Assembly: GCA_002350545.1 (NCBI GenBank)
Contig: DEEY01000002.1
Coordinates: 38,166-102,165, forward strand
Length of the DNA stretch: 64,000 nt
DNA from: Candidatus Saccharibacteria bacterium UBA2866
GTDB taxonomy: Bacteria; Patescibacteriota; Saccharimonadia; Saccharimonadales; Saccharimonadaceae
Direction of reading: 5' to 3'
Of this stretch, positions 35,274 through 38,264 are shown one piece after another (positions within the stretch are counted from its first letter, which is position 1; the number at the start of each line of letters is the position of its first letter). The translations under genes and the position numbers were made by a program. Under the pieces are notes generated by a model, which saw nothing but the letters and a program-made list of their open reading frames with translations, was not told the origin of the DNA and searched no databases.

Positions 35274-38264
35274 ATGAAATATAGAGCTGGAGAACGCCGC
35301 AAGGCTATTGAATATGAAAAAGCCATTGCAGAGTGGTGGAAAAAGAATAAAACTTTTGAACAATCGGTAGAGAATCGTCCGATTGATAAATCCTACGTTT
35401 TTTATGATGGGCCACCATTTATTACCGGTAATCCTCACCACGGAACATTGCTTAGCTCTATCGTGAAAGATGCTGTTCCACGCTATTGGACTATGAATGG
35501 TCGCAGGGTAGAACGTCGCTGGGGTTGGGATTGTCATGGTCTTCCGGCAGAGAATTATGTTGAAAAACAGCTAGGCATTACTGATCGCCGCGAAATCGGG
35601 ACCAAATGGAGTCTCGAGGACTACATCATCAAAGCTCGCGAATCTATGGTTGCCAATTCCGAGACTTGGCGCAGTACCATTGACCGCGTCGGTCGCTGGG
35701 TTGATTTTGATAATTGCTACCGCACTATGAATAAAGACTTTATGGAATCCGTCTGGTGGGCTTTTAAGCAGCTTTATGAAGCTGGTAAAATCTACGAAGG
35801 TCGTAAGGTCTTAATGTACGATACCAAATTCGCCACTCCGGTATCTAAAGCCGAAGTTACTATGGACAACGATGCCTACCAAACCGTCACCGATCCAAGT
35901 GCGTATGTGAAGTTTAGACTAGTGGATTCTGAATCCACTTATTTCTTAGCTTGGACCACCACCCCTTGGACCTTGATGGGGAATCGCATGCTTGCCGTTA
36001 GTCCAAAAATGACTTATGCAAAAGCAAAAGTTGGCAGCGAAGTTTTTATTCTTGCTAAGACTCGTTTAAAAGAGGTCCTAAAGGGTACCGATTACGAAAT
36101 CCTTGAAGAGGTGAAGGGTTCTAAGCTTGCTGGTTTAAACTATGAATCTATCGACGGCACAACTTGCAAAGTTTATACTGCTGATTTCGTTGGCGAAGAA
36201 GAAGGCACCGGTATTGTCCATTGTGCCCCAGCCTATGGCGAGGACGACTATGCTCTCTATTTAGAACACGAAAATGAGATTGAATTTGTTGATTGTCTAG
36301 ACGAAAACGGCTATTATATCAAGGAATATGCCGATAAACTTCACGAGCTCGGCGTCCGTAATACCGACGAGCACGGCATTCAAATCTGGGTTGGCAATAA
36401 GTTTATCGCCAAATGTATGGAAGAAAAGGGTATTATTTATAAGATTGAATACATTCAGCACGAATATCCTTTCAACCCACGCAGTAAAGAGCGCATCATG
36501 TATCGTGCCTTCCCAAGTTGGTTCTTCGATGTTGAGGGCCAAAAACAAATGATGCTCGATGAAAACGAAAATATCAACTGGTTCCCGGGATATTTAAAAC
36601 ACGGTCGCTTTGCCAAGAATATTGAGGCCGCTCCTGATTGGAATCTTTCGAGGGATCGTTTCTGGGCTACTGCCATGCCGGTCTGGAAGGGCGACAAGGG
36701 AACGGTCAAAGTTGTCGGAAGTTACAAGGAACTAAAAGACCTCTCCGGCAAGGAATTAGATGATTATCACCGCCCTTGGGTGGATGAAATCGAATTTGAT
36801 ATCAAAGGCGAGCATTTCAAACGCATTGAAAAGGTTCTAGACTGCTGGTTTGAATCTGGTTCTATGCCGTTTGCTCAGCTCCACTACCCATTTGAAAACA
36901 AGGAAAAATTCGAACGTAATTATCCGGCCGATTTCATTGTTGAATATGTCGGTCAGGTTAGAGCTTGGTTCTACTACGTTCACACCGTGAACACCGCTCT
37001 GGCAGAAATTGGTGCCTTTGGTGAAAAAGCCAAACAAGGTGCCAAAAACGCCTATAAGAATGTTATCACTACTGGTACTCTAGCCGGGAACGATGGGCGC
37101 AAGATGAGCAAATCTCTCGGCAATTACACCGATCCTAACGAATTGATGGACCAATACTCTGCAGACGCTCTCCGCTTCCTGCTCCTCAGCTCTCCAGTGC
37201 TTTCAGGCGAAGATTTCGCCTTACTAGATAAAGACGTTAACGACGTCAATCGTAAACTCGCCATGATTTGGAACGTTTACGATTTCTTCACTACTTACGC
37301 CGAAGTCGAGAACCTTAGTACGGAGGAACTCGAAAATACTTCTATCCGAGGGCTTTCGGAGGTTGCTACCGAGAATGAGGGCGCGAGCCCCGTGAAGACG
37401 GGCGCGAGCGACCCGTCCCGAGGAAGGAGTATTTCGAGTTCCTCACCACTAGATGTTTGGATAATTTCGCGTATATATGAGCTAAGAAATCAAATTACCG
37501 AGGGTATGGAAGAATACAACATCCCCAAAGCTTTGGAAAATGTACTTCCATTTATCGATGATCTCTCCAACTGGTTTGTCCGTCGCAGTAGAAGACGCTT
37601 CAGCAAGAACGATGATGAGAAGGACAAAAAGCAAGCCTTTGCAACTCTTTACTATGCCTTAGTTTATCTATCAAAACTGCTCGCTCCGTTTACTCCATTC
37701 CTCGCCGAGGAACTATATCAGAAGATGACTGGCAAGGAAGAATCCGTCCATCTCTTAGAATGGCCAAAGCCAGGCAAAATCGATCAGAAGATTTTAGACA
37801 ACATGGCTTACACCCGTCAGATTATAACCGACGCCCTTGCCCTCAGGATGCAAAAATCCGAGACCGAGGACCAAATTAAGATTCGCCAGCCTTTGTCTAA
37901 ACTTACCTACGGTGGCGACAAATTAGATGATTACTACGAACGGATCATTGCTGATGAAGTTAACGTCAAAGCGGTAAAACACGGCAAGGAACTTGCTCTT
38001 GATAAGAAACTCACCAAAGAGCTTAAAGAAGAGGGAAGAGCTCGCGAGATTATCCGCGCCGTTCAGGCTGCCAGGAAACACGCCGGTCTTCAAGTTGATG
38101 ACGAAATCAAACTTTCACTCTCCTGTGACCTTCCAAAAGGCTACGAGGATCTCATTAAAACCGAAACGGGCACCAAAGAGTTTAGTAAGGACCAAAACTA
38201 CGCCTATGACGAAATCGCCAAGGTGAACGGCGAAAATATCACAATTTCTCTAGAAAGAGTTTAA
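35274..38264 (+). CDS. ileS: Isoleucine--tRNA ligase, type 2
   Basis: YDGPPF, GWDCHGLP, AWTTTPWTL, KMSKS, C-terminal EGRAREIIRAVQ. Confidence 0.97.
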   Translation: MKYRAGERRKAIEYEKAIAEWWKKNKTFEQSVENRPIDKSYVFYDGPPFITGNPHHGTLLSSIVKDAVPRYWTMNGRRVERRWGWDCHGLPAENYVEKQLGITDRREIGTKWSLEDYIIKARESMVANSETWRSTIDRVGRWVDFDNCYRTMNKDFMESVWWAFKQLYEAGKIYEGRKVLMYDTKFATPVSKAEVTMDNDAYQTVTDPSAYVKFRLVDSESTYFLAWTTTPWTLMGNRMLAVSPKMTYAKAKVGSEVFILAKTRLKEVLKGTDYEILEEVKGSKLAGLNYESIDGTTCKVYTADFVGEEEGTGIVHCAPAYGEDDYALYLEHENEIEFVDCLDENGYYIKEYADKLHELGVRNTDEHGIQIWVGNKFIAKCMEEKGIIYKIEYIQHEYPFNPRSKERIMYRAFPSWFFDVEGQKQMMLDENENINWFPGYLKHGRFAKNIEAAPDWNLSRDRFWATAMPVWKGDKGTVKVVGSYKELKDLSGKELDDYHRPWVDEIEFDIKGEHFKRIEKVLDCWFESGSMPFAQLHYPFENKEKFERNYPADFIVEYVGQVRAWFYYVHTVNTALAEIGAFGEKAKQGAKNAYKNVITTGTLAGNDGRKMSKSLGNYTDPNELMDQYSADALRFLLLSSPVLSGEDFALLDKDVNDVNRKLAMIWNVYDFFTTYAEVENLSTEELENTSIRGLSEVATENEGASPVKTGASDPSRGRSISSSSPLDVWIISRIYELRNQITEGMEEYNIPKALENVLPFIDDLSNWFVRRSRRRFSKNDDEKDKKQAFATLYYALVYLSKLLAPFTPFLAEELYQKMTGKEESVHLLEWPKPGKIDQKILDNMAYTRQIITDALALRMQKSETEDQIKIRQPLSKLTYGGDKLDDYYERIIADEVNVKAVKHGKELALDKKLTKELKEEGRAREIIRAVQAARKHAGLQVDDEIKLSLSCDLPKGYEDLIKTETGTKEFSKDQNYAYDEIAKVNGENITISLERV
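37323..37444. repeat. Palindromic element, subfamily 1, in frame inside ileS
   Basis: Arms GAGGAACTCGAAAATACT / AGTATTTCGAGTTCCTC; core homologous to 2537-2653. Confidence 0.88.

Follow-up and report, generated by a model that had tools for sequence, protein, structure and literature searches.

A palindromic repeat inserted in frame into the isoleucyl-tRNA synthetase of gut Saccharibacteria, probably a copy of a small mobile DNA element

How does a long DNA hairpin come to be read as codons in the middle of an essential gene? The question is raised by ileS of Candidatus Saccharibacteria bacterium UBA2866, which lies in a stretch of 64,000 nucleotides (nt) of contig DEEY01000002.1 (assembly GCA_002350545.1, positions 38,166 to 102,165, forward strand). 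This whole stretch is called the window, and all coordinates below refer to it. The gene encodes isoleucyl-tRNA synthetase (IleRS) and contains an imperfect palindrome at 37323-37444. An earlier, sequence-only reading had proposed that a non-coding repeat became protein here, in a surface loop of the anticodon-binding domain. Our comparison of orthologues, relatives of the repeat and predicted folds makes it probable that this hairpin represents one copy of a small mobile DNA element, non-autonomous and specific to a gut clade of Saccharibacteria. The element would have entered IleRS in the variable linker that immediately precedes the anticodon-binding domain. It would have persisted there with a net gain that is a multiple of three and a stop-free frame being read, and as a peptide rich in Ser, Gly, Thr and Glu, probably disordered, in a loop tolerant of length changes. 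The parts of the locus and the second copy of the repeat in the window are as follows.

35274-38264, forward strand: ileS, intact, for a predicted type-2 (eukaryote-like) IleRS of 996 amino acids (aa) (open reading frame (ORF) listing, Pfam, matches to solved structures).
37323-37444, forward strand: whole imperfect palindrome in ileS, 122 nt, codons E684-S724 (fold, covariance model).
37336-37433, forward strand: approximate mobile unit of about 98 nt, i.e. structured core plus family-conserved inner arms (conservation in 63 copies; net gains).
37323-37335, forward strand: 5' outer arm GGAGGAACTCGAA, host-derived codons E-E-L-E (D-S-[DE]-[DE]-L at the same place in empty orthologues).
37434-37444, forward strand: 3' outer arm TCGAGTTCCTC, which pairs with the 5' outer arm and encodes S-S-S(-S) (empty alleles: ..ISSSNP or ..DSSNP).
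37355-37375, forward strand: helix P2 of the core, TTCGG..CCGAGAA (covariation in alignment A2, described below).
37379-37414, forward strand: helix P3 of the core, GGGCGC....CCCG TGAAGA CGGG.....GCG-A-CCC (alignment A2; 13 pairs).
2537-2653, forward strand: second copy of the family, intergenic, 3 nt past the efp stop codon and upstream of a pilM-like gene (fold, covariance model).

The boundaries of the mobile unit are probably accurate to about +/-4 nt. The ileS palindrome folds at -70.7 kcal/mol, compared with -43.3 +/- 3.7 kcal/mol for shuffled sequences (z -7.35; 0 of 200 shuffles as good), and in the minimum-free-energy fold the main stem runs from 37323 to 37444. In ileS, a covariance model built for the family matches 37329-37446 with 114.8 bits (E 4e-45). 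The intergenic copy, whose neighbours encode EF-P and PilM_2 proteins, takes the same shape (-61.5 kcal/mol, z -8.85) and scores 108.5 bits. Both copies share an ungapped stretch of 91 nt at 75% identity and an exact 16-mer, CCGAGAATGAGGGCGC; the match between the two cores that had been seen earlier is thus upheld. Run over the window with filters off, the model finds these two copies only, and its next match reaches 15.5 bits. Rfam returned nothing but tRNAs over the whole window at gathering score, and over both copies at E up to 10 it gave no family and nothing better than E 0.7. A self-splicing intron or another described RNA family was rejected, as no curated covariance model matches either copy. 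An intein was discarded as well: the insert spans 31-41 aa (EELEN.. to ..SISSSS-P) and has no His-Asn, whereas inteins have at least about 130 aa, an N-terminal nucleophile and, at their C-terminal junction, His-Asn with Cys, Ser or Thr after it.

Orthologues of IleRS identify the hairpin as an insertion. The span from WNVYDFF to WI.SR is 204 nt long in the window, whereas L071 and L070 have 111 nt. Relative to the closest empty orthologue, the window has gained 93 nt net (31 codons); the 122 nt of the palindrome are themselves not a multiple of three. In protein terms, the loop has 18 aa in the element-free orthologues P0009/L071 (93% identity) and P0010/L070 (89%), but 49 aa in the window. 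Metagenomes supplied another 80 IleRS loci, of which 31 had a parsable loop, nearly always of 17-25 aa; a loop of this length is found in 30 of 37 parsed orthologues. In IleRS2 of P. megaterium (8c8u) it has about 17 aa, and when this protein is aligned to the window, the alignment is interrupted at query residues 685 and 713. The loops without the element are therefore not of the same length as the one with it, in agreement with the view of the hairpin as an insertion; by sequence comparison, it is a repeat inserted in frame into what seems to be a permissive loop of IleRS. That the frame is kept through the insert could also be confirmed: the ORF of 996 aa at 35274-38264 is intact and reads across 37323-37444 without a stop. 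The peptide separating FFTTYAEV from PLDVWIISR consists of ENLST, EELENTSIRGLSEVATENEGASPVKTGASDPSRGRSISSS and S. The idea that the hairpin adds this peptide holds for the in-frame gain, but the gain amounts to about 31-33 codons and not 40, and the outer bases of the arms (EEL.., ..SSS) are native IleRS codons. From an insert-bearing IleRS, a tryptic peptide spanning the junction would be expected, e.g. GLSEVATENEGASPVK.

The set of Pfam domains in the window IleRS is complete, with tRNA-synt_1 at aa 18-645, Anticodon_1 at 727-861 and DUF5915 at 907-996. Its best match among solved structures is the IleRS2 of P. megaterium (8c8u, E 2.6e-177), while type-1 enzymes match at 1e-63 to 1e-75 (8c9e 5e-63, 1ffy 1e-74). 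To judge by these matches, the host gene is a type-2 IleRS, nearer to the eukaryote-like IleRS2 than to the bacterial IleRS1; named homologues belong to Candidatus Saccharibacteria. The insert lies immediately N-terminal of Anticodon_1, at the end of a linker that stops 2 residues before the domain, and the domain starts at aa 727 in the window compared with aa 695 in the empty orthologue. An AlphaFold model of the enzyme was built on a shallow alignment of 32 sequences and used solely for its local confidence near the insert. Its residues 690-722 are coil with a predicted local distance difference test score (pLDDT) below 50; the flanks are confident helices (63-74 for residues 661-690, 74-92 for 721-740). 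In LeuRS (L003) and ValRS (L055), the element sits 18-24 aa before their own Anticodon_1 domains. Taken together, the low local pLDDT, the variation in loop length and the placement in LeuRS and ValRS point to a permissive inter-domain loop as the probable site of insertion. Of the surface loop of the anticodon-binding domain that had been proposed, the loop survives as a modelled coil, but it belongs to the linker just before Anticodon_1.

As a side observation, the length of IleRS varies between 950 and 1280 aa in this clade (orthologues P0001-P0120), with at least five insertion sites. Other inserts are found at query aa 219, 332 and 509-512, plus an N-terminal extension. P0008 is without 46 aa of the editing-domain region (aa 208-253), which could be a real deletion or an assembly gap.

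Where else does the repeat occur? For a census of the family, one genome per species was scanned with the exact core pattern GAGGGCGCNNNNCCCGTGANGACGGG. It hit 69 loci, about 66 of them in Saccharibacteria/Nanosyncoccus and 3 by chance in GC-rich phyla; viral contigs contained no match to the pattern. The family genomes come from the gut of goat, sheep, yak and similar sources, with a maximum of 14 copies in one genome. Some 85% of the recovered copies lie inside long ORFs. The family resides mostly in coding sequence, and the intergenic copy is the exception. Hence, the statement that a non-coding repeat became protein is right about a repeat inserted in a gene, but the intergenic state is that of a minority. 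The 57 copies within ORFs collapse to 27 independent gene sites. Their host genes encode GatB, GatA, LepA, EngA, Obg, PheT, LeuRS, ValRS (at two sites), AlaRS and PolA; further hosts are UvrB, UvrD, DnaX, MnmA, TsaD and FemAB, as well as a class-V aminotransferase, a glycosyltransferase and a Wzy_C membrane protein.

The frames in which the repeat is read follow a clear pattern. Among 73 matches, the open frame is +0 in 35 and -0 in 26, and 4 have none. The sense (+0) peptide reads ..RGLSEVTTENEGASPVTTGASDPS.. and the antisense (-0) peptide ..GDGSLxPVVTGxAPSSSVVTSGSPR... Counted per site, +0 is used 15 times, -0 12 times, and -2, +2 and -1 once each. The consensus unit is free of stops in the frames +0, -0 and -2 only. 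The +0 and -0 peptides are rich in Ser/Gly/Thr/Pro/Glu/Val and have net charges of -3 and 0; the -2 peptide is Arg-rich, has a net charge of +9 and is used once, in the membrane protein. Frameshifting indels are compensated within copies, for instance in L040, where +1 and then +2 nt lead to ..RGRSGGYDRGSEGASPV.., and what subfamilies have in addition is a multiple of three in length (a hairpin of 27 nt in L019, L024 and L068; a nested insert of 75 nt in P0033). The peptide RGLSEVATENEGASPVKTGASDPSR also occurs at aa 219 of IleRS in other lineages. This pattern of frames and stops fits roughly random insertion followed by selection on the translated product, and not removal before or during translation. 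The insert in IleRS is most likely transcribed and translated as part of the enzyme, to which it presumably does little harm.

What is conserved throughout the family is a structured core. According to alignment A2, which comprises 63 copies, the consensus fold has a closing stem and the hairpins P2 and P3, set within long outer arms. Standard pairs occupy 95.1% of the cells, compared with 84.4 +/- 0.5% in shuffles (0 of 500 as high), and the covariation score of 0.302 compares with 0.111 for shuffles and 0.05-0.10 for slid partners. In P2, pair 28-46 is UA in 29 copies, CG in 29, AU in 3 and GC in 2, with none broken, and pair 35-40 is UA in 55 and CG in 8. P3 has 99.8% of the cells of its 13 pairs paired, and its pairs 61-79 and 62-78 switch together between GC, CG, UA and AU. 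In paired columns, G.T outnumbers A.C by 45 to 19 (p 0.0016, uncorrected for relatedness), and this excess suggests that the strand written here is the folding strand. The '+' orientation of the core lies on the strand of negative GC skew in 52 of 67 copies, or in 23 versus 8 classes of site and orientation. As the skew, taken over 8 kb, is confounded with gene orientation, the strand bias is a hint only.

The arms have another origin than the core. RNAfold over-extended the stems; the ends of the element were therefore set by anchored alignment of the arms. Within each copy the two arms are complementary at about 0.9 up to 28 nt from the core and fall to background by position 30, while the information shared between loci is below 0.6 bit per position past about 10 nt from the core. 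Across copies, the palindrome measures 113-124 nt. Empty alleles reveal what the outer arms are. In PheT, the 13 outer nt of the 5' arm of L015, GGATTTCAGATAA (G-F-Q-I), are identical to native codons of the empty L024, and the 3' arm is their complement. In L103 (IleRS aa ~620), the two outer arms both line up with codons native to five empty orthologues (F-G-K/Q-A/G and A-Q/P-G-K/Q), and exactly 33 codons are gained. Outside genes, the outer arms of L081, downstream of ileS, equal the base of an intrinsic terminator stem seen in the empty L075. Likewise, the arms AAAATCAGAA/TTTGATTTT of the copy at 2537 match the base of the efp terminator stem in L155; the efp-pilM promoter spacer is 12-21 nt long in L153 and L154 and about 131 nt in the window. 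At the locus of interest, the empty allele L156 (P0084), with a loop of native length (18 aa), still has an inverted repeat, AGAACTTGG..CTCAAGCTCT, whose halves pair with each other and are homologous to the outer arms GAGGAACTCGAA..TTCGAGTTCCTC of the window. We conclude that the mobile unit comprises about 98-99 nt (33 codons) and sits between mutually complementary host sequences. These comparisons show that the outer 10-13 nt or so of each arm belong to the host, as native codons in genes and as the base of a terminator stem between genes. Because the unit is flanked by complementary host DNA, a palindrome of about 120 nt results for the locus as a whole.

Evidence for mobility comes from comparing the same sites in different lineages. 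The IleRS sites that are filled differ by lineage (aa ~105, 219, ~620, 689 and the 3' end), and site 689 has been filled in distant lineages by different subfamilies or orientations (window clade, L040, L073, L107). At the GatB site, L021 and L046 have homologous arms and an inverted core, showing that the core flipped between homologous arms. The 27-nt subfamily hairpin sets the orthologous copies L013 and L068 apart from each other. Decay is seen in remnants such as L157, with 15-bp arms and no core (z -3.9), and L072, with a 10-bp inverted repeat. P0009 and P0010 are empty; we read them as losses, because more distant relatives are filled. One further feature within ileS belongs here:

35921-35939, forward strand: perfect 9+9 mini-palindrome AGTGGATTC T GAATCCACT in the loop at aa ~219 (hairpin listing).

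The element itself is present in this loop in L060, L040, P0014, P0033 and P0108. Different short palindromes occur in the same loop of L116 and L122, and at site 689 of L076. Such mini-palindromes may be targets of insertion or footprints of excision. The window contains 27 perfect hairpins (stem of at least 8 bp, loop of at most 10 nt), compared with 11.2 +/- 3.4 in dinucleotide shuffles. An explanation of this excess by footprints of the element was not retained as conclusive, since many of the 27 look like terminators. Movement would, we infer, proceed via a folded single-stranded intermediate, which settles in or beside DNA hairpins that already exist. A more far-reaching version, which we put forward tentatively and regard as doubtful, is a mobile DNA that recognizes shape: a structured, stop-free unit of 33 codons enters the tips of pre-existing hairpins, for instance terminator stems or inverted repeats present by chance in genes, or makes its flanks complementary afterwards, flips in place, and on loss leaves mini-palindromes as preferred sites of re-insertion. 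If this were true, a shape-recognizing element would be a main driver of loop expansion in essential proteins of the ultra-small bacteria of the candidate phyla radiation (CPR), and hairpin-tip insertion would be a mechanism for which no enzyme has been described.

Could the locus be explained without a mobile element? It is extremely unlikely that an assembler or a binning step collapsed a repeat into ileS. De Bruijn contigs do break at such repeats, and in an independent run the core is covered 8-70 times as deeply as the flanks, in line with its being a repeat. However, the insert is carried by seven protein clusters of 99-100% identity and by P0008 (95%), with identical junctions on more than 30 independently assembled contigs, and at least 98% of the sampled 31-mers across 36900-37900 are present in 19 public runs. 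In the independent run, contigs enter the element for 30-54 nt from both ileS flanks with zero differences. Furthermore, the ORF is intact, and the element found at this site in diverged orthologues has diverged as well. The suspicion of an artefact was thus not borne out. An ordinary lineage-specific expansion of the IleRS loop that is self-complementary by chance hardly deserves belief: loop length does vary (17-25 aa) even among element-free orthologues, but the same sequence of about 95 nt occurs at 2537-2653 and at no fewer than 27 unrelated gene sites of other genomes, which refutes a chance expansion.

Two other explanations accept the repeat and differ on what it does. The mature protein might lack the insert through mRNA excision, through ribosomal bypass of the kind known from T4 gene 60 and mitochondrial byp elements, or through protein splicing; the very stable hairpin on the sense strand speaks for this. 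Constraint on frame and stops would then be lifted, yet of 30 combinations of site and frame, 27 fall on the two benign frames without stops, and indels in copies within ORFs are compensated so that the frame is restored. Both orientations inside genes are at odds with an RNA-level signal, no intron or ribozyme family matches, and a 41-aa peptide without intein termini is too short; we consider such removal very unlikely. The core could instead be a functional structured nucleic acid recruited by the host, whose coding copies are maintained for that function, for example a protein-binding DNA hairpin, a signal for replication or recombination, a transcription terminator or an mRNA stabilizer. 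The strong covariation is in keeping with it, as are a core that is more than 90% conserved while the arms diverge, the excess of G.T over A.C (45 to 19) that hints at a single folding strand, the '+' strand on negative GC skew (23 versus 8 classes) and two intergenic copies exactly at the terminator positions of relatives. However, close relatives (P0009, P0010, L153, L154) have lost the element without replacement, copies decay by internal deletion (L157, L072), presence and absence are patchy, and the sites differ between genomes. Covariation is also expected from transposition-competent masters, and resident copies then need no function. Recruitment for such a function is, on balance, unlikely.

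The interpretation as a mobile element has its own difficulties. No transposase or other mobilizing enzyme turned up, though no systematic search for one was made; a filled/empty polymorphism within a single population was not seen, and mobility rests on comparative evidence. The scan with an exact pattern recovers one subfamily only. Many loci are orthologous copies in related metagenome-assembled genomes, and the collapse to 27 sites removes most of this non-independence but not all. The IleRS model is poor overall (mean pLDDT 53), so that the 'surface loop' leans mainly on the variability of loop length. As to expression, two RNA-type runs hold related sequence but their contigs stop short of the ileS junctions, and in one raw-read run, too shallow for this organism, 3 reads matched, all in the core. 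Compared with empty orthologues, filled sites have gained 72-78, 93, 99 (several sites), 105-111 or 117 nt net, with a cluster at 93-99 nt, so 99 is the mode of these gains and not a constant. Moreover, the complementarity of the arms may have any of three origins: insertion into a pre-existing inverted repeat, a palindrome made afterwards by template switching at a hairpin, or copying of one flank at insertion. A model in which an inverted copy of about 13 nt of flank is always added at insertion is weakened by L103, with its native arms and exactly 33 codons, and by the two terminator cases; at L060, L008 and L107 (gains of 105-111 nt), the flank may have been copied.

Does the element belong to a known class? 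By analogy, its closest counterpart is apparently the Rickettsia palindromic element (RPE). The families RPE-1 to RPE-10 measure about 150 bp, and nearly half of their copies lie in frame in unrelated genes (Ogata et al. 2000; PMC10969869). Both are dispersed palindromic repeats of about 100-150 bp, present in many copies in a small reduced genome; both are found in frame in many unrelated housekeeping genes, to which they add a conserved peptide, and in intergenic copies too. For neither has a transposase been identified, and insertion is thought to be compatible with the protein fold. The hosts, however, are Alphaproteobacteria in one case and Saccharibacteria of the CPR in the other, and the two are likened by behaviour and not by sequence homology. 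About 85% of the copies described here lie in genes, compared with about half in RPEs, and the element differs further in its asymmetric covarying three-helix core, its locus-specific outer arms taken from the host and the two orientations of the core between homologous arms. Common descent with RPEs is unlikely, because all hosts found here are Saccharibacteria.

[quoted passage not shown] They are mostly intergenic, however, and their defining marks are terminal inverted repeats that are conserved and direct duplications of the target site (2-11 nt in QMITEs). In our copies, the best flanking direct repeat averages 2.74 nt compared with 2.89 nt in displaced controls, i.e. there is no target-site duplication, and the termini are not conserved (below 0.6 bit beyond 10 nt); membership in the MITEs was rejected. 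A search for a parent insertion sequence (IS), which was not exhaustive, found none. Repetitive extragenic palindromes (REP) and bacterial interspersed mosaic elements (BIME), with their REP-associated tyrosine transposases (RAYT), were discarded as well: those are extragenic, 20-40 bp long and have a GTAG/CGTC head, while the present unit of about 98 nt, in a palindrome of about 120 nt, lies in genes in about 85% of copies and has no terminal tetranucleotide. The absence of duplications is consistent with elements derived from IS200/IS605. These would be expected to insert 3' of a conserved tetra- or pentanucleotide target, but the flanks hold at most 0.34 bit per position and no target motif, which speaks against this assignment.

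Some insertion sequences are directed to hairpins: IS1397 and ISKpn1 enter REP/BIME loops, IS110/IS1111 enter REP-like palindromes, and IS200/IS605 transpose as single strands. All are autonomous, carry a transposase and have a defined target sequence. The Saccharibacteria element resembles them in being enclosed by a host inverted repeat (terminator stems at L081 and 2537, short repeats in genes), in leaving no target-site duplication and in its hints of strand specificity; it differs in having neither a conserved flank motif nor an enzyme found. GC-rich palindromic clusters of yeast mitochondria, including the byp elements, are another comparison; byp elements break the reading frame and are skipped by the ribosome. 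In both cases GC-rich hairpin elements invade the coding sequence of an AT-richer genome. The Saccharibacteria element, in contrast to byp, keeps the frame and avoids stops, which implies translation. We found no description in the literature of such elements in Saccharibacteria or Patescibacteria.

In-frame palindromic repeats have been known in Rickettsia genes since 2000, and their route of insertion and their tolerance by proteins are still unexplained. Saccharibacteria would provide a second, independent case, in a very different lineage with reduced genomes and with thousands of public metagenome-assembled genomes. Since the same sites are represented there by many alleles, whether filled, empty, flipped or decayed, the question can be approached without culturing. 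Much of the length variation in housekeeping proteins of Saccharibacteria, including aminoacyl-tRNA synthetases, would be derived from repeats, which affects annotation, alignments of phylogenetic markers and structure prediction; moreover, short-read assemblies break at these repeats inside essential genes. The unusual feature is a conserved structured unit enclosed by inverted repeats of the host, and its interest could exceed that of an RPE-like case if the mechanism were worked out.

Several other palindromes were noticed in the window. One, unrelated to the ileS element, lies in frame at 21368-21501 in the gene of arginyl-tRNA synthetase (ArgRS; ORF 19904-21727), at the start of the DALR anticodon-binding domain. 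It folds at -65.8 kcal/mol over 151 nt, and its inner 20-nt arms are about 90% complementary. Compared with ArgRS of E. coli (4oby), the net gain is about 7 aa only, hence a native loop was replaced rather than extended. The idea that its long arms are native codons turned palindromic was not kept, as convincing complementarity is limited to the inner 20 nt. A third family of palindromes has an in-frame copy at 26907-26989 in a diacylglycerol-kinase-like gene (ORF 26559-27554, DAGK_cat), with the peptide ..EDRKLGRTALSVSE.., and an intergenic copy at 11420-11498; a peptide of the same family, ..EDRKLGRAPLSVSE.., occurs in P0033 IleRS at query aa 512. Between two ORFs, at 42370-42574, there is an intergenic palindrome of 205 nt (-86.6 kcal/mol) that has no Rfam match and is unrelated to the ileS element. 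Long palindromes at 48782-48851 and 61897-61987 lie just downstream of, or overlap, the 3' ends of the tRNAs at 48651-48724 and 61847-61920. These palindromes may be terminators, or else represent additional families of repeats.

The genes around ileS may be mentioned last. It is flanked by long ORFs at 33939-35246 (435 aa) and 39422-40963 (513 aa), neither of which has a Pfam match. The former overlaps an MscS-like gene by about 90 nt, and the latter contains many low-complexity stretches of Pro/Asp/Thr/Glu. Finally, the conserved AT-rich motif AAAAAnTnAAAAAnTAAGCATAAAAnGT, followed by TTGAC/TTGCA and then TATACT, is found upstream of genes at 38439-38496, 53133-53190 and 58401-58426. L075 and L076 have it downstream of ileS too, and it resembles a shared element upstream of promoters.

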